This document shows positions 9,742 through 15,557 of a DNA stretch of 64,000 nt, piece by piece; positions within the stretch are counted from its first letter, which is position 1; each line of letters opens with the position of its first letter. The position numbers and the translations under genes are program-made. The stretch lies in sequence record OR999189.1; one strand, given 5' to 3'. The stretch is from Enterobacteria phage P922. The notes under the pieces were generated by a model. It was given only the letters and a program-made list of their open reading frames with translations, was not told where the DNA came from and ran no database searches.

Positions 9742-10035
9742 ATGGCCTTAAAAGCAGCGGCACTTTTTGCCATGCTAGGATTGTCATTTGTTTTATCTCC
9801 ATCGATTGAAGCGAATGTCGATCCTCATTTTGATAAATTTATGGAATCTGGTATTAGGCACGTTTATACACTTTTTGAAAATAAAAGCGTAGAATCGTCT
9901 GAACAATTCTATAGTTTTATGAGAACGACCTATAAAAATGACCCGTGCTCTTCTGATTTTGAATGTATAGAGCGAGGCGCGGAGATGGCACAATCATACG
10001 CTAGAATTATGAACATTAAATTGGAGACTGAATGA
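9742..10035 (+). CDS. rI: lysis inhibition antiholin RI
   Basis: 97 aa, N-terminal signal-anchor MALKAAALFAMLGLSFVLSPSIEA, periplasmic domain with Cys pair; resembles T4 RI. Confidence 0.85.
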   Translation: MALKAAALFAMLGLSFVLSPSIEANVDPHFDKFMESGIRHVYTLFENKSVESSEQFYSFMRTTYKNDPCSSDFECIERGAEMAQSYARIMNIKLETE

Positions 10036-10418
10036 AATTCAGCGACTTTTCACAAAGTGGAAAACCTTCAAAGGCAGATGAATACTTAGGTTTATTAATG
10101 GCTGCGCAAGCTTATTTTCATTCTGCGCATTTTGAAACTAAAAGTTATGCTAGACACAAAGCATACGATTTTATTTTCTCTGAGTTGCCAGATTTGATTG
10201 ACAAATTTGGTGAGCAGTATTTGGGGTATTCTGGTAGAAAATACACACCTTCAATTCCAGATGCTAGTAAACTTCCTACCGACACAATTAAAATGATTGA
10301 TCGTATACTAGACCAATCTAACAGCATTTACAAAGAAATGCCTCCAGCCATTCAAAGCACGATAGATGATATTACTGGAATGTTTTATCAAAGTAAGTAT
10401 CTTCTTTCCCTCGAATAA
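10032..10418 (+). CDS. hypothetical protein (rI.-1 position)
   Basis: ORF track; ATGA overlap with rI. Confidence 0.5.
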
Positions 10419-10422
10419 CATT

Positions 10423-10446
10423 AGTCTCCTTCGGGAGACTTTTTTC
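10423..10446 (+). terminator. rho-independent terminator
   Basis: AGTCTCC-TTCG-GGAGACT followed by TTTTT. Confidence 0.75.
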
Positions 10447-10455
10447 ATTTTACCG

Positions 10456-10490
10456 GTTTACTTTCCATTTGAGCTGTGATACTATACAAC
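10456..10490 (+). promoter_or_regulatory. early promoter
   Basis: GTTTAC at 10456-10461, -10-like GATACTAT ~18 nt downstream; GAGGAG RBS before ATG 10514. Confidence 0.55.
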
Positions 10491-10513
10491 CATCGGATAA
10501 AGAGGAGAACATC

Positions 10514-10702
10514 ATGAAAATTGAAGCACTTAATCAAGAAGGAAATATCTACGTCATCATTAATGGTGATTTTTTCGTCGACATGGATGAAGTTACTAGT
10601 GAAGAACTTGAAGAACTTCTTAAGAAACGTTATGATATGTGTGATGAAGCTGCAACTCACATGGCGTGTGCAATATTCTCTCTTTCATATGTGGTGGAAT
10701 AA
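10514..10702 (+). CDS. hypothetical small acidic protein
   Basis: ORF track 10469..10702; ATG 10514 has RBS. Confidence 0.5.
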
Positions 10703-10905
10703 TGATTAGTATCGAACAAGCAGATAAAATTAAAGAATTGGTAGCTTTAATTCGCAAAGCAGATGGGGAACTTAGTGACTTTGGTTGGTTTTCGTCAGGT
10801 ATTGCAAATAAAGGTATTGAAGAATTTGAAGCTAAAGTTGATAATGCTGTAGAAGCTTTAGATATGTTTCTTGATGAAATTATCGATCATAATACGAGAG
10901 TTTAA
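10702..10905 (+). CDS. hypothetical small protein
   Basis: ORF track 10666..10905; ATG 10702 overlaps upstream stop. Confidence 0.45.
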   Translation: MISIEQADKIKELVALIRKADGELSDFGWFSSGIANKGIEEFEAKVDNAVEALDMFLDEIIDHNTRV

Positions 10906-10907
10906 GT

Positions 10908-11102
10908 ATGCTGACACACGAACAGTTTGAAAAAATCATTAAATTAGTACGTGATGTTGAAATAGATTCATATCAATTAGCAGTTGAGCATTGTGAAGGA
11001 TATTCATACGACGGTATAGAAGCAGCTAAAAGAGATTTGGATAAATCCAAAGCTAAGTTAGTTCAATATCTTGAAATGATTAGGTGGAATAATGAAAACT
11101 GA
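10908..11102 (+). CDS. hypothetical small protein
   Basis: ORF track. Confidence 0.45.
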   Translation: MLTHEQFEKIIKLVRDVEIDSYQLAVEHCEGYSYDGIEAAKRDLDKSKAKLVQYLEMIRWNNEN

Positions 11103-11265
11103 AAAGCAGATGTTTTTAATGAAGCTAATTGAAGAATATGCTAATGCAGTTTCTGACTATGAGTATTCTTCTCGTGAAAGAGGTACAGCTTTCGCAAAGG
11201 AAGAAATGAAAATTATGGTTGATGCTCACACAAAGCTTCAGAATTTTATTGAAAACGTCATTTAA
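11092..11265 (+). CDS. hypothetical small protein (57 aa)
   Basis: Manually translated MKTEKQMFLMKLIEEYANAV...; below track length cut-off; GGTGGAAT before ATG. Confidence 0.4.
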   Translation: MKTEKQMFLMKLIEEYANAVSDYEYSSRERGTAFAKEEMKIMVDAHTKLQNFIENVI

Positions 11266-11267
11266 CG

Positions 11268-11297
11268 GTTTACAAGTTGGCAAGGTTATGGTATAGT
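11268..11297 (+). promoter_or_regulatory. early promoter with inverted repeat around -10
   Basis: GTTTAC 11268-11273, 18 nt, TATAGT 11292-11297; imperfect inverted repeat flanks the -10. Confidence 0.55.
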
Positions 11298-11325
11298 AAT
11301 CTTGTCAACTGCTAAGGAGAAGAGA

Positions 11326-11430
11326 ATGAAAGTTTTGTTTGTTGTGTATGTGATGATTCAATATAATTACCCAATGTTTACTTATAATCTGGTGAACAAC
11401 ATTATTGATATTATTCAAAGGAGTATGTAA
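11326..11430 (+). CDS. 34-aa hydrophobic peptide
   Basis: MKVLFVVYVMIQYNYPMFTYNLVNNIIDIIQRSM; AAGGAGAAGAG RBS; first ORF after promoter. Confidence 0.35.
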   Translation: MKVLFVVYVMIQYNYPMFTYNLVNNIIDIIQRSM

Positions 11431-11432
11431 TT

Positions 11433-11990
11433 GTGAGTGAGTCGAAGAGAATCAATATGAAACGATTAGTACTAGAAGTTAGTTCACTTTTTGGTGAATT
11501 GGCTATAGAAAAAGTAAATAATATGTATCGTTTGACGCAAGAAGACGATATGCTATATTTTACGCCTAGCGAAATTATTCATTTAACCCAAATTGAAAAA
11601 CCTTACACTGATAAAATTGTAAGCATTAATGATGAGCATAAAATTCATTTCTATTCTTTATGCCCAGGATTTAACATTGAAAGCGAGTCAATATGCTTAT
11701 CAATTAATAATTGGGATAATTTTATAACTAAAATTAAATATTTTTATTATTCTAACGAAAGAAAACATGGTTTAAAATGGTTTAAAAATTGCAATGCTAT
11801 TATTACTAACGATTGCAATCAGAATGATGAAACTCTTTTAAATGTATCAAAATGTTATGAAGAGGGAGATGTCTTAACTATTCGTCAAATTGATGATTTT
11901 CGATCACATATTGTCACATTTACCAAAGACGAAGCTATTGCGCTAAAGACTTATCTTGATTCTGTCATTCCAACTATGATTTCAAAGTGA
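11433..11990 (+). CDS. hypothetical protein, tandem paralog A
   Basis: GTG start with AAGGAG RBS 9 nt upstream (ATG 11457 alternative); C-terminal KDEAIALKTYLDSVIPTM resembles the next ORF. Confidence 0.55.
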   Translation: MSESKRINMKRLVLEVSSLFGELAIEKVNNMYRLTQEDDMLYFTPSEIIHLTQIEKPYTDKIVSINDEHKIHFYSLCPGFNIESESICLSINNWDNFITKIKYFYYSNERKHGLKWFKNCNAIITNDCNQNDETLLNVSKCYEEGDVLTIRQIDDFRSHIVTFTKDEAIALKTYLDSVIPTMISK

Positions 11991-11996
11991 GGAAAT

Positions 11997-12518
11997 ATGT
12001 TTATTTCAAGTGAAAGCGGTTTAATTCGTGTTGAATTTAAAAATGACATCTTCCTTATTCAAGGAGATGATATTATTAAAATGAGTTATGACGAAATCAA
12101 GAAAATTTGTCATATTCTTGAAAGTCGTGGAAAAGGAAATGCTACTATCGATATAGGTGATTTATGGGTGACACTTTATGAAGTATCCGAAGGATTTAAC
12201 ATTGAAGATGAAAACAACATCTTAGCTATTGATAAAAGAAGTGATTTGTTTGATGTGTTAAAAGTTTATGAACAGTCAAACGGTGGAAGAAAAGCTGCAT
12301 TGATTTATCAAAAACCACATTCATGTGGAACTGCTTCAATCATTTCAAATATTGAAGATGAAACTGATACTTATATGTGTGTTTTAAAAGCTGGTGGTGA
12401 CCGTCATCCGGATTTTATTTCTATTCGTCAAAACAATGGAGAAATTTCATTATCAAAATCAGAAGCTGAAGCTATGATTAAGTATTTAACAACTGTTACA
12501 CCTTCAATGAAAGGATAA
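11997..12518 (+). CDS. hypothetical protein, tandem paralog B
   Basis: C-terminal KSEAEAMIKYLTTVTPSM similar to preceding ORF; GAGGAAAT RBS. Confidence 0.55.
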   Translation: MFISSESGLIRVEFKNDIFLIQGDDIIKMSYDEIKKICHILESRGKGNATIDIGDLWVTLYEVSEGFNIEDENNILAIDKRSDLFDVLKVYEQSNGGRKAALIYQKPHSCGTASIISNIEDETDTYMCVLKAGGDRHPDFISIRQNNGEISLSKSEAEAMIKYLTTVTPSMKG

Positions 12519-12520
12519 TT

Positions 12521-12982
12521 ATGATTATTAATGAAAGCTCTTGGCACTATAAATTATTCAAAATGTTTAATGATGAATGGAAACGACCTAAGACACTGTG
12601 TGCATACTTTTGGTCTATTGTTATCCCTACATTTTTCGTTTCTTTTTTCGGATGTACTATACTCGCAGGTCTAACTATTATCTGTGCAGAAATCATGCAG
12701 AAATGGTTTATTTATGGTAGTTTATGGACTCTTATTCCATCAGCATTTATACTTGCTATTTTGCTTGTTTTACTTATTATTGGTTCATTTGTTATTCCTG
12801 CACAACTACATGAAAAATATAAAGATTATAAATGGAAAAAGGATTATGCTTTACATGTAGAAAATATTGATAGGGCGTATAAAGGTTTACCTCCTATTCA
12901 ACCCAAGAAATCTATTATCGTCGAATTTTTAAAAACGCGTAAAGCTAAAGTATGTCCTGTTATTGAATATAAGGCTGAATGA
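12521..12982 (+). CDS. polytopic membrane protein
   Basis: Several long hydrophobic stretches; 153 aa. Confidence 0.55.
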   Translation: MIINESSWHYKLFKMFNDEWKRPKTLCAYFWSIVIPTFFVSFFGCTILAGLTIICAEIMQKWFIYGSLWTLIPSAFILAILLVLLIIGSFVIPAQLHEKYKDYKWKKDYALHVENIDRAYKGLPPIQPKKSIIVEFLKTRKAKVCPVIEYKAE

Positions 12983-13992
12983 TGAAAACAGTAATGAAAA
13001 GCTATTTCGGTAGTCATCTTTATGGAACTTCTACTCCAGAATCTGATGTAGATTTTAAAGAAATCTTTGTTCCTCCTGCTCGTGATATTCTTATCGGAAA
13101 TGTTAAAGAGCATATGAGTAAAAACACTAACAACACATCATCTAAAAACACTAAAGATGATATTGACCATGAACTATACAGTCTTAAGTATTTCTTTAAA
13201 TTAGCAGCAGATGGTGAAACTGTAGCATTGGATATGCTTCACACTCCACCTGAGCTAGTGGTTAAATCTGATTTGCCTGATGTATGGAAGTTTATTCAAG
13301 ACAATCGTTCTCGTTTTTATACGACTAACATGAAATCCTATTTAGGATATGTCCGCAAGCAAGCTTCTAAATATGGTGTTAAGGGTTCTCGTTTGGCTGC
13401 ATTACGTGATGTATTGAAAGTAGTTAATCAAATCCCCGATCAGTGGGTTGATTACCGAGAAGATGGAACACAAGGACAACGTCGTACTAAAGTTGAAGAT
13501 ATTAAGCATCGTCTTCCAGAGAACGAATTCTGCGAATGGGTATTCCATAATCATGAGAAAACAGGCCCACAGACGTTCTACACAGTGTTGGGTCGTAAAT
13601 ATCAGACAACGCTTTCTCTTATTGAGCTTAAGCAGTCACTGAACAAATTAGATGCTGAATACGGTGAACGTGCTCGTAAGGCCGAAGCCAATGAAGGTAT
13701 TGACTGGAAAGCTCTGAGTCATGCTTGCCGTGGTGGACTCCAACTATTGGAAATTTACAAAACTGGTGACTTGGTTTATCCACTCCAAGATGCTCCATTT
13801 ATTCTCGACGTGAAGTTGGGTAAACATCCATTTAAAACGGTTCAAGAGTTTTTGGAAGATGTGGTCGATCAAGTAGAAGCAGCATCTACTGAAGCTTCTA
13901 AGAACGGTATGCAGCAAAAAGTAGACATGGGTTTTTGGGATGACTTCCTTGAGAGGGTTTATCTTGAAAACCACCGAAGTTATTATAAATGA
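12979..13992 (+). CDS. nucleotidyltransferase-fold protein (Pol-beta-like GS...DxD motif) with helical C-terminal domain
   Basis: YFGSHLYGTSTPESDVDF matches the G-S-x(10)-D-x-D pattern; 337 aa. Confidence 0.6.
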   Translation: MMKTVMKSYFGSHLYGTSTPESDVDFKEIFVPPARDILIGNVKEHMSKNTNNTSSKNTKDDIDHELYSLKYFFKLAADGETVALDMLHTPPELVVKSDLPDVWKFIQDNRSRFYTTNMKSYLGYVRKQASKYGVKGSRLAALRDVLKVVNQIPDQWVDYREDGTQGQRRTKVEDIKHRLPENEFCEWVFHNHEKTGPQTFYTVLGRKYQTTLSLIELKQSLNKLDAEYGERARKAEANEGIDWKALSHACRGGLQLLEIYKTGDLVYPLQDAPFILDVKLGKHPFKTVQEFLEDVVDQVEAASTEASKNGMQQKVDMGFWDDFLERVYLENHRSYYK

Positions 13993-13994
13993 TA

Positions 13995-14019
13995 GGGAGC
14001 CTTCGGGCTCCCTTTTTTA
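13995..14019 (+). terminator. rho-independent terminator
   Basis: GGGAGCC-TTCG-GGCTCCC then TTTTTT. Confidence 0.8.
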
Positions 14020-14042
14020 TTTCAAAAATTTTTCACAAAATT

Positions 14043-14072
14043 GTTTACAAGCATAAAGCTTTATGGTACTAT
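14043..14072 (+). promoter_or_regulatory. early promoter
   Basis: GTTTAC 14043-14048, 18 nt, TACTAT 14067-14072; shares flanking sequence with promoter at 41870. Confidence 0.55.
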
Positions 14073-14109
14073 ACAACTATCAAAACAAACACTTAAACGG
14101 AAAAACAAA

Positions 14110-14259
14110 ATGAAAATTACACCAATTGAAGTAAAAAAGTTGATTGACACAGAAGAAATTTCAGAGTGTTTTGAAAGTTTCTTAGAAGATGCAACTGAAG
14201 ATAATGCAGTTTATCTCGCTCAGAAAATTATCGAAACTTATTTGGAGAAGAATCAATGA
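14110..14259 (+). CDS. small acidic protein (49 aa)
   Basis: ORF track 14041..14259; ATG 14110 downstream of promoter. Confidence 0.45.
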   Translation: MKITPIEVKKLIDTEEISECFESFLEDATEDNAVYLAQKIIETYLEKNQ

Positions 14260-14519
14260 CAGTTTACGTAGATGTTTTAATGAATCATGGATGGAAACTT
14301 CGCGGTCATCCAACTAAAAATTGTCATATGTTCACTGATGGAGATATTGAAGAGCTTCATGAAATGGCAGAAGCAATAGGAATGAAACGTTCTTGGTTTC
14401 AAGATAAACGCATTAAACATTATGACTTACACGCTCGGCGACGCCAAAAAGCTATAGAACTTGGCGCCGTAGAAGTATCTCGTCGCGAAGCAGTAAAAAT
14501 TTGGCAAACATTAAAATAA
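14256..14519 (+). CDS. conserved small protein (possibly DUF4031-type)
   Basis: MTVYVDVLMNHGWKLRGHPTKNCHMFTDGD...RSWFQ...HYDL pattern; assignment from memory only. Confidence 0.45.
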   Translation: MTVYVDVLMNHGWKLRGHPTKNCHMFTDGDIEELHEMAEAIGMKRSWFQDKRIKHYDLHARRRQKAIELGAVEVSRREAVKIWQTLK

Positions 14520-14522
14520 ATT

Positions 14523-14552
14523 GTTTACAGCAGGGTAGTAGTGTGATACTAT
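14523..14552 (+). promoter_or_regulatory. early promoter with inverted repeat around -10
   Basis: GTTTAC 14523-14528, 18 nt, TACTAT 14547-14552; GGGTAGTA...TACTATTACCC imperfect inverted repeat. Confidence 0.55.
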
Positions 14553-14588
14553 TACCCTATCAAAACAAATGTAAAATTGGAGAATAAA

Positions 14589-15557
14589 ATGAAAACTGTA
14601 ACTATCAATAAGGGTATCTACTTCGGTAAAGAAATCTCTGGAACTTTTGAGCTCTTAGGTGAATGGTTCCCAGATAATGCTCCGGTAGATGCACAAGGAG
14701 ATGGTAAAGTTTTTGTTGAAATTGACGGTAAGCGTCGCGGTGTTTGGGTTTACAAATCAGACATTTCATATGATGGTGTAAAAGTTGAAGAAGTTAAAGA
14801 ATCATATGAAGATATGAAAACCCGCATTAATAAAAGATTTAATGTTATGGGAATGATGACGAATGGTATTATTAACGGAAATATTCGTTCATTAATTATC
14901 TCTGGTGCGGCGGGTATTGGTAAAACGTATTCTTTAGATAAAGCTTTGAATAAAGCAAATGATAATGGATACATTGAATATAAAAGCATTAATGGTAAAA
15001 TCTCTGGTATCGGTCTTTATGAACAGCTTTGGAATAATCGTGAAGAGAATTCTGTCCTTTTGATTGATGATGTGGATGTTTTCTCTGATATGGACATTCT
15101 TAATCTTCTGAAAGCTGCTCTGGACACTGGAGAGACCCGTAAAGTCTGCTGGAGCACCGCATCTTCTTACTTAGAAGAAAAAGGCATTGAGCGTGAGTTT
15201 GAATTTAAAGGAACGATTGTTTTTATCACAAACGTTGACATTGACCGCGAATTAGACCGTGGTACTAAACTTGCTCCACATTTACAAGCATTAGTGTCCC
15301 GCTCGGTTTATTTGGATTTGGGTGTTCACACTAATGAAGAAATTATGGTCAGGGTTGAAGATGTTATTCTTTCAACTGACATGATGCAAAAGCGCGGTCT
15401 TTCTGATGAAGAAACTTATAAAGCATTATCATGGATGAAAGTTAATGTTAATCGTTTACGCAATGTTTCACTGCGTACTGCTCTTTATCTTGCTGACTTT
15501 ATTATGACCGACAAAAACGGTTGGGAAGAAATTGCTGAGGTTACTCTTCTGAAATAA
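14589..15557 (+). CDS. AAA+/P-loop ATPase
   Basis: Walker A ISGAAGIGKTYS, Walker B VLLIDDVD, sensor-like VFITN; GGAGAATAAA RBS. Confidence 0.65.
   Translation: MKTVTINKGIYFGKEISGTFELLGEWFPDNAPVDAQGDGKVFVEIDGKRRGVWVYKSDISYDGVKVEEVKESYEDMKTRINKRFNVMGMMTNGIINGNIRSLIISGAAGIGKTYSLDKALNKANDNGYIEYKSINGKISGIGLYEQLWNNREENSVLLIDDVDVFSDMDILNLLKAALDTGETRKVCWSTASSYLEEKGIEREFEFKGTIVFITNVDIDRELDRGTKLAPHLQALVSRSVYLDLGVHTNEEIMVRVEDVILSTDMMQKRGLSDEETYKALSWMKVNVNRLRNVSLRTALYLADFIMTDKNGWEEIAEVTLLK

Follow-up and report, generated by a model that had tools for sequence, protein, structure and literature searches.

Two questions are raised by the early region of Enterobacteria phage P922: what is done by the nucleotidyltransferase-fold protein encoded there, and whether it acts together with the genes that precede it. 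The DNA studied is a window of 64,000 nucleotides (nt) from sequence record OR999189.1, in which an open reading frame (ORF) for a protein of 337 amino acids (aa), at 12979-13992, follows two tandem paralogs (11433-11990 and 11997-12518) and a gene for a membrane protein (12521-12982). An initial annotation, made from the letters alone, had placed these four ORFs, all of which were recovered at these positions on the + strand, and had suggested that the block could make or sequester a nucleotide signal, or modify a host target. As an observation this annotation is confirmed, with small corrections. The nucleotidyltransferase proves to be the counterpart of T4 NrdC.11, a member of the RlaP family, and probably acts on the ends of RNA.

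Identity and conservation of the nucleotidyltransferase

The 337-aa protein shares 97% of 336 aligned residues with T4 NrdC.11 (NP_049709), which is named 'nucleotidyltransferase' in RefSeq and '38.9 kDa protein in nrdC-mobD region' in UniProt. By this sequence match it is an ortholog of NrdC.11, and the gene is already known and annotated. Two adjacent ATG codons lie at its start: the first, at 12979, yields 337 aa and the 4-nt ATGA overlap with the membrane-protein gene that had been reported initially, while the second, at 12982, with which the T4 annotation fits, yields 336 aa and reduces the overlap to 1 nt.

The assignment to the Pol-beta nucleotidyltransferases, made at first from a motif of GS, ten residues and DVD, is well founded. 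The translation reads G11-S12, exactly ten residues, then D23-V24-D25, and the Pfam family RlaP (PF10127) is matched with 44.2 bits against a gathering cut-off of 23 (E 2.6e-11; residues 7-135, profile positions 23-142 of 249). A precomputed match to the same family is present on 120 of 120 homologs among the matches listed. The family is large, with 3439 clusters at 50% identity found at E <=1e-3 and 825 at E <=1e-30; homologs occur in 1513 phage records, including phages of Escherichia, Klebsiella, Aeromonas, Acinetobacter and Vibrio, and full-length homologs of 32-54% identity are found in bacterial and archaeal assemblies. Across 70 homologs (34-54% identity) the residues G11, S12, S22, D23, D25, N57, D63, Y132, R231, K244, H248, R251 and P268 are invariant. 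The catalytic set (G11, S12, D23, D25 and D63) is kept in 142-146 of 146 homologs, these being full-length representatives of 50%-identity clusters.

Scans of the four proteins against NCBIfam and against PADLOC (E <=0.01), a library of known and candidate defence-system proteins, gave no match, and searches of PDB sequences with the single nucleotidyltransferase sequence and with a 70-sequence profile returned chance-level matches only.

Names in public annotations are often misleading for these families. Homologs of NrdC.11 are widely mislabelled 'thioredoxin', and one is labelled 'HNH homing endonuclease'; the label 'molybdopterin-guanine dinucleotide biosynthesis protein MobD' is attached to T4 mobD.4, to a y05I protein and, in RefSeq records, to one gene of the block; and one y05I protein is labelled 'thymidine kinase'. 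These wrong names can be traced to propagation from T4 gene symbols.

Predicted fold

The AlphaFold2 model of the nucleotidyltransferase is confident (predicted local distance difference test, pLDDT, 94.0; predicted template modelling score, pTM, 0.80) and has the strand and helix order of a Pol-beta core. This core extends to about residue 115 and is followed by a long helix (119-150), a beta-rich insertion (about 155-209) and a helical domain (214-336), so that the helical domain initially proposed to follow the core is present, but the region is not purely helical. The two properties by which the initial annotation proposed to judge its assignment, a predicted nucleotidyltransferase fold and conserved catalytic acids, are found in the AlphaFold2 and Foldseek results and in the homolog alignments, respectively.

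Foldseek matches of this model in the PDB are weak (best E 3.5e-3). Those of appreciable probability are nearly all Pol-beta nucleotidyltransferases, namely kanamycin nucleotidyltransferase, 3c18, HalB, AadA, Tam41 and MNT, and others among the fold matches are the aminoglycoside nucleotidyltransferases (ANT), DrrA and the GlnE adenylyltransferase.

These results bear directly on the signalling role first suggested for the gene, in which an enzyme resembling the CD-NTases would produce a nucleotide signal, cyclic or linear, imitate one or sequester it, and so interfere with CBASS, Thoeris or Pycsar. The GS...DxD...D active site is held in common with such enzymes, as it is with every Pol-beta nucleotidyltransferase, and, like many anti-defence genes, this one is early and can be dispensed with. 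However, neither of the two lists of fold matches contains a cGAS, DncV or OAS chain, none of the CD-NTase, SMODS, Mab21 or OAS models in Pfam is matched at E <=0.1, PADLOC has no match, and the significant family match is to RlaP. Some bacterial relatives, furthermore, lie in RNA-repair surroundings, with no CBASS component among the listed neighbour families. The proposed kinship with cGAS and DncV, like the making or sequestering of a nucleotide signal, finds no support in these searches, and a second-messenger role is highly improbable. The kinship with minimal nucleotidyltransferases suggested at the same time fares no better, NTP_transf_2 scoring 13.5 bits against a cut-off of 21. The minimal nucleotidyltransferase of a HEPN-MNT pair was likewise rejected: besides this score below threshold, the protein has 337 aa as against about 100-150 aa, and its gene has no separate HEPN gene for a neighbour.

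Relationship to canonical RlaP

The name RlaP was reportedly given by Burroughs and Aravind in 2016. Alignment with hhalign of a profile of NrdC.11-like sequences to one of canonical short RlaPs gives a probability of 94% and an E value of 1.2e-7 over residues 3-139, with D63 of the nucleotidyltransferase falling on the third RlaP aspartate. The nucleotidyltransferase core, the three conserved aspartates and the succession of a nucleotidyltransferase domain and a helical domain are shared with canonical RlaP; by contrast, NrdC.11 is about 80 residues longer and carries the beta insertion. Because the alignment is confined to residues 3-139, NrdC.11 is best described, on sequence and predicted structure, as a long-form branch which shares the RlaP catalytic core and adds to it the beta insertion and a C-terminal helical domain that has diverged. 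In the C-terminal halves, hhalign sets K244-x3-H248-x2-R251 against K-x3-Y-x2-R, an alignment that is not significant (E 0.075), and the substrate specificity of NrdC.11 could therefore differ from that of canonical RlaP.

Canonical short RlaPs were found in 86 phage records, among the matches listed mostly Pseudomonas phages (by name) with genomes of about 260-350 kb. None of these 86 records is an Escherichia T4-like phage, so that in the T4-like phages the long form stands alone.

T4 NrdC.11 itself belongs to cluster 5 of a similarity network of PF10127 (PMC12776372, Carruthers et al. 2025 preprint). The Pseudomonas enzymes PfRlaP and PaRlaP add one or two nucleoside monophosphates to the 3'-OH of RNA, rather than to DNA or protein, with a preference for Mn2+ (PMC12776372). 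This has consequences for a further reading, in which a nucleotidylyl group is transferred to a target other than RNA, either by AMPylation of a host protein, as with DrrA, GlnE or MNT, or by adenylylation of a small molecule, as with ANT or kanamycin nucleotidyltransferase (KNTase). All of these are represented among the fold matches, yet the Pfam scan, at E <=0.1, finds none of their families, and the characterised RlaPs labelled RNA but no E. coli protein or DNA (PMC12776372). The modification of a non-RNA target, which includes the host target envisaged initially, is accordingly unlikely.

Genomic neighbourhood of NrdC.11 relatives

A minority of the bacterial relatives of NrdC.11 resemble canonical RlaPs in having genes for RNA ligases or end-healing enzymes next to their own. 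Upstream neighbours of the bacterial genes (n = 34) include PNKP ligase (2), RtcA (2), an Rnl1-type ligase (1), AAA_33 (3), Metallophos (3) and Ro60/TROVE (2), and RtcB, Hen1 and a sigma-54 activator are among the second neighbours. In distant phages the 113 neighbours scanned include Phage_ProQ_C_like (6), HD (4), AAA_33 (3) and a PNKP phosphatase domain (1). Unlike RlaP, the phage gene does not adjoin RtcB or RtcA.

Of 41 same-strand genes directly downstream of a bacterial NrdC.11-like gene, 14 encode a full-length canonical RlaP (best E 5.9e-81). In bacteria the long form is hence often found beside the canonical short RlaP, not in its stead, and the two nucleotidyltransferases may work as a pair. 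Such arrangements of long form followed by canonical RlaP, the genes sometimes overlapping, were seen at loci L085, L100, L110, L111, L130, L133, L135, L140, L148, L149, L154 and L156, and at others.

In jumbo phages, the distribution of RlaP has been noted to mirror that of RNA ligases (PMC7824862, Iyer et al. 2021).

Proposed function

The identity with T4 NrdC.11, the membership of the core in the RlaP family, the predicted fold, the conservation of the catalytic residues and the RNA-repair genes beside some bacterial relatives are direct observations. Taken with the activity of the Pseudomonas enzymes, they make it likely, though by no means assured, that NrdC.11 is an RlaP-family nucleotidyltransferase which, in the course of RNA repair, extends the 3'-OH ends of RNA by a few nucleotides without a template. 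In this scheme D23, D25 and D63 would bind two metal ions, and NrdC.11, in the manner of the Pseudomonas RlaPs, would draw on nucleoside triphosphates to attach one untemplated nucleotide, or a few, at an RNA 3'-OH; where a host ribotoxin such as RloC has trimmed a nucleotide from a transfer RNA (tRNA), the addition could restore it, and the end-healing and ligase enzymes of the phage could then reseal the RNA. It is by analogy that we infer the RNA substrate, the number of nucleotides added and the counter-defence role.

Several points weigh against this proposal. Homology to canonical RlaP is limited to residues 3-139, the resemblance between the C-terminal halves falls short of significance, and the canonical RlaP profile found nothing among PDB sequences, leaving no RlaP structure for comparison. 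The top structural match is instead HalB, a maker of oligodeoxyadenylate and not an RNA-tailing enzyme. The majority of neighbours in both bacteria and distant phages are unrelated to RNA repair, and the ORFs and Pfam scan reveal no RNA ligase or kinase gene in this operon. In T4-type phages, Pnk and the RNA ligases are encoded elsewhere in the genome. The literature on nrdC.11 and mobD.1 yielded no functional study, which for NrdC.11 counts against the proposal. Finally, the role of RlaP in mending RNAs from which ribotoxins such as RloC have removed nucleotides is itself still no more than the proposal of a preprint (PMC12776372); the same prediction appears for phage RlaPs in PMC7824862, where it is credited to that paper's reference 178.

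A CCA-adding enzyme was also considered and rejected, the protein having no Pfam match to that family. Some T4 tRNAs depend on the host CCA enzyme.

Organisation of the transcription unit

The window is DNA of a Tequatrovirus (T4-like) phage, with a G+C content of about 32-38% and a positive GC skew throughout, and its + strand corresponds to the direction of early transcription in T4. Homologs of the T4 thymidine kinase, rI.1, rI and rI.-1 genes lie immediately upstream of the four-gene block. In a megablast search with the 2.8 kb at 11300-14100, 707 phage records match, with a coverage of 80% or more in 428; nearly all are T4-like phages of Escherichia, Shigella or Yersinia, the closest being Shigella phage CT01 (97.6%). 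The unit comprises the following features.

11269-11297, + strand: early-type sigma-70 promoter-like site, TTTACA-17 nt-TATAGT with an upstream TG (consensus match only, 10/12)
11326-11430, + strand: mobD.2-like ORF, 34 aa, first in the unit, with AAGGAG upstream and a hydrophobic N-terminus (phrog_3515, E 6.5e-22)
11433-11990, + strand: paralog 1, y05I/MobD.1 family, 185 aa, GTG start (88% identity to T4 MobD.1, Pfam, phrog_1502)
11997-12518, + strand: paralog 2, y05I family, 173 aa, predicted Pur-alpha/Whirly-type fold, not in T4
12521-12982, + strand: predicted small inner-membrane protein, 153 aa, two transmembrane helices, basic C-terminal tail (hydropathy scan, phrog_944)
12979-13992, + strand: NrdC.11 ortholog, putative long-form RlaP-family Pol-beta nucleotidyltransferase, 337 aa (T4 identity, Pfam, AlphaFold2)
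13994-14020, + strand: intrinsic terminator, GC-rich stem, UUCG loop and T-run (fold energy; annotated at the same place in phage D5505)

Both borders assigned in the initial annotation, an early promoter and a strong terminator, are borne out: a promoter-like site precedes the first ORF, and the hairpin at 13994-14013 (8 bp, of which 6 are GC, with a UUCG loop and a T-run after it) has a folding energy of -17.7 kcal/mol and a z score of -4.0 against shuffled sequences. The 34-aa ORF between the promoter-like site and paralog 1 had been left out of that annotation; a coding sequence is found at the equivalent place in T4 (mobD.2) and in phage D5505. No RNA family was found by an Rfam scan of 10000-15000.

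A viable T4 deletion reaches from nrdC.11 to mobD.3 (PMC9825161). We consider it likely, with some reservation, that the block forms an early operon which the T4-like phage can do without, and which lies in its variable tk-rI-nrdC region.

The y05I paralogs and the membrane protein

The two upstream proteins are tandem paralogs, as had been recognised, with 29% identity (BLASTP E 4e-11), the same Pfam families and a common C-terminal motif, [ST]K.EA.A[LM]..YL..V.P[ST]M. The duplication behind them is, to judge from their divergence, old. A repeat search gave short matches only, among them a GFNIE-coding stretch common to both. T4 MobD.1 is orthologous to paralog 1, whose true start is possibly not the GTG but the ATG that lies in frame at 11457 and gives the 177-aa form annotated in phage D5505; T4 has no counterpart of paralog 2. 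Both proteins lie far above threshold for PF24449 and PF24448 (T4_y05I_N and T4_y05I_C), with E values of 9.5e-41 and 6.6e-21, respectively, for paralog 1.

The model of paralog 2 (pLDDT 80.8, and above 90 over most of the N-terminal half) consists of three beta-beta-beta-beta-alpha repeats. Such repeated units, together with structural similarity to Pur-alpha and Whirly proteins, assign the paralogs to a predicted PUR/Whirly fold, in which the counterparts of Pur-alpha repeats I and II would lie in y05I_N and that of repeat III, by which Pur-alpha dimerises, in y05I_C. The Pur-alpha/Whirly fold is a typical binder of single-stranded nucleic acids, and on the strength of the model the paralogs probably bind single-stranded RNA or DNA. 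They differ from Pur-alpha, Whirly and MRP1/MRP2 in that only 6-15% identity is shared with these structural matches, in having no Pfam match outside the T4-specific y05I families, and in the narrow distribution of their family, which comprises 65 clusters confined to enterobacterial T4-like phages.

One 179-aa protein from metagenomes (P0281) is a chimera of the N-terminal part of paralog 1 and the C-terminal part of paralog 2; from its sequence, it seems to have arisen by recombination of the two tandem genes, with deletion of the DNA between.

In a hydropathy scan two hydrophobic helices (about 27-57 and 66-95) are seen in the 153-aa protein, which ends in a basic tail of 58 aa. It matches phrog_944, 'membrane protein', with E 1.1e-48 and no Pfam family above threshold. 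The initial description of a polytopic membrane protein is therefore right as to the membrane, but two helices do not make it highly polytopic.

Comparison with T4 and other phages

NrdC.11 occupies the same position in T4, with tk, rI and rI.-1 before it and nrdC.10 after it, but its upstream neighbour there is the HNH homing endonuclease gene mobD, where the window has paralog 2 and the membrane-protein gene. The mobD cassette of T4 (locus L001, 12430-13283) lies exactly at the place of 11997-12982 of the window: the two sequences cease to be similar 16-18 nt after the beginning of paralog 2 and are alike again from a point shortly before the nrdC.11 start, and in T4 a remnant ORF of 23 codons (MFISSG...) is left, whose stop overlaps the ATG of mobD. 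At locus L007 the order is y05I, membrane gene, mobD and NrdC.11, mobD having been inserted without gene loss.

The components of the block are unequally distributed: 1513 phage records have the nucleotidyltransferase, as against 833 with the membrane protein and 454 with paralog 2. Across 78 viral loci the membrane gene, where detected, is nearly always upstream of the nucleotidyltransferase; the more distant phages among these loci have no detectable membrane-protein or y05I homolog nearby. In the Klebsiella-type loci L012 and L028, one to three other genes separate the membrane gene from the nucleotidyltransferase, and a lone y05I C-terminal repeat of 72-73 aa directly precedes the membrane gene (L012, 4099-4814; L028, 4758-5467). 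Other T4-like phages similarly have a y05I_C-type protein of 72-98 aa alone, directly before the membrane gene. Of the recurring pairs, that of the y05I_C-type protein and the membrane protein is the tightest, and it is more persistent than the link to the nucleotidyltransferase.

This patchy distribution of the accessory genes argues against an obligate partnership with the nucleotidyltransferase, and an obligate four-gene system is judged unlikely. Of the unit described initially, the single promoter-like site and the terminator stand, whereas the idea that its genes work together is weakened both by their unequal distribution and by the gene content of T4. We see an even balance of probability for the alternative that the four genes are mere neighbours in a hyperplastic region, with unrelated functions, and that NrdC.11 acts alone. 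The disparate record counts, the presence of mobD in T4 in place of paralog 2 and the membrane gene, and the other genes that stand before the nucleotidyltransferase at L012 and L028, where the y05I_C and membrane genes stay together, all favour it. Against it can be set the single promoter-like site, the single terminator and the overlap of the membrane and nucleotidyltransferase genes in this phage, features that make co-expression certain, but not cooperation. The independence of the four genes is compatible with a role for the nucleotidyltransferase at RNA ends.

The opposite possibility, in which all of these proteins cooperate, is suggested by HalB. Hailong is an operon of a membrane protein and a nucleotidyltransferase with the same gene order (PMC13434031). 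By analogy, the phage nucleotidyltransferase could be a HalB-like polymerase making template-independent single-stranded DNA or RNA oligonucleotides, which the PUR-fold proteins would bind and to which the membrane protein would respond, as a phage-borne Hailong-like pair or as a decoy; in the latter version, oligodeoxyadenylate would be supplied to keep the host HalA channel closed. The overlap of the membrane-protein gene with the nucleotidyltransferase start, and paralogs with a predicted fold typical of single-stranded nucleic-acid binders, are consistent with such a module. Yet the sequence family of the enzyme is RlaP, the profile search of PDB sequences gave no nucleotidyltransferase chain at E <=1, and PADLOC 2.0 gave no match, the presence of Hailong models in it not having been checked. 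HalB (PDB 9dbh), the oligodeoxyadenylate-synthesising nucleotidyltransferase of a two-gene defence system, is only 15% identical to the phage protein, has 217 residues against 337, and has no sequence-profile link to it. As for the partner of HalB, HalA, the phage candidate is a small two-helix protein without a counterpart in many relatives: it is missing in T4 and in about 45% of the phage records that bear the nucleotidyltransferase, and its gene is separated from the nucleotidyltransferase by other genes in the Klebsiella-type relatives. A HalB-like polymerase is consequently quite improbable. Its combination with the family assignment, namely that long-form RlaP is itself an oligonucleotide synthase, with the product bound by the Pur-alpha-fold proteins and sensed by the membrane protein in an oligonucleotide-gated module or an anti-Hailong decoy, is more improbable still. 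The addition of nucleotides to RNA ends by NrdC.11 is the function that we prefer.

Genes flanking the unit

Upstream of the block, a second terminator-like hairpin (10423-10440; 7 bp, UUCG loop, T-run) follows rI.-1 and parts its unit from small mobD.3- to mobD.5-like ORFs at 10469-11265. Between the nrdC.11 terminator and the nrdC.10 homolog, an early-type promoter-like site (14044-14072) and a small ORF ending at 14259 are followed by the gene for an 87-aa DUF4031 protein (14256-14519; Pfam E 1.5e-21). T4 has a mere 114-nt gap where the window has the small ORF and the DUF4031 gene (14041-14519), and this gene pair is found at varying places in relatives. The nrdC.10 homolog (14577-15557, 326 aa) contains the P-loop GAAGIGKT and has weak, sub-threshold matches to AAA and STAND NTPases, with a strong match to phrog_1250 (unknown function).

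Significance

NrdC.11 is one of many T4 early genes of unassigned function. The RNA-end hypothesis has already been published (PMC7824862; PMC12776372), so the window adds no new kind of system. The additions made here are modest: that the NrdC.11 clade appears to be a distinct long form with only the nucleotidyltransferase core in common with canonical RlaP, that in bacteria this form is often found beside canonical RlaP, that the MobD.1/y05I paralogs have a predicted Pur-alpha/Whirly fold, and that paralog 2 and the membrane gene of this phage stand at the very place taken up in T4 by the mobD cassette. If NrdC.11 does tail or repair RNA ends, a third step, the restoration of nucleotides, would be added to the tRNA-repair pathway of T4 Pnk and Rnl1, and this would explain how T4-like phages may survive nucleotide-removing anticodon nucleases such as RloC.

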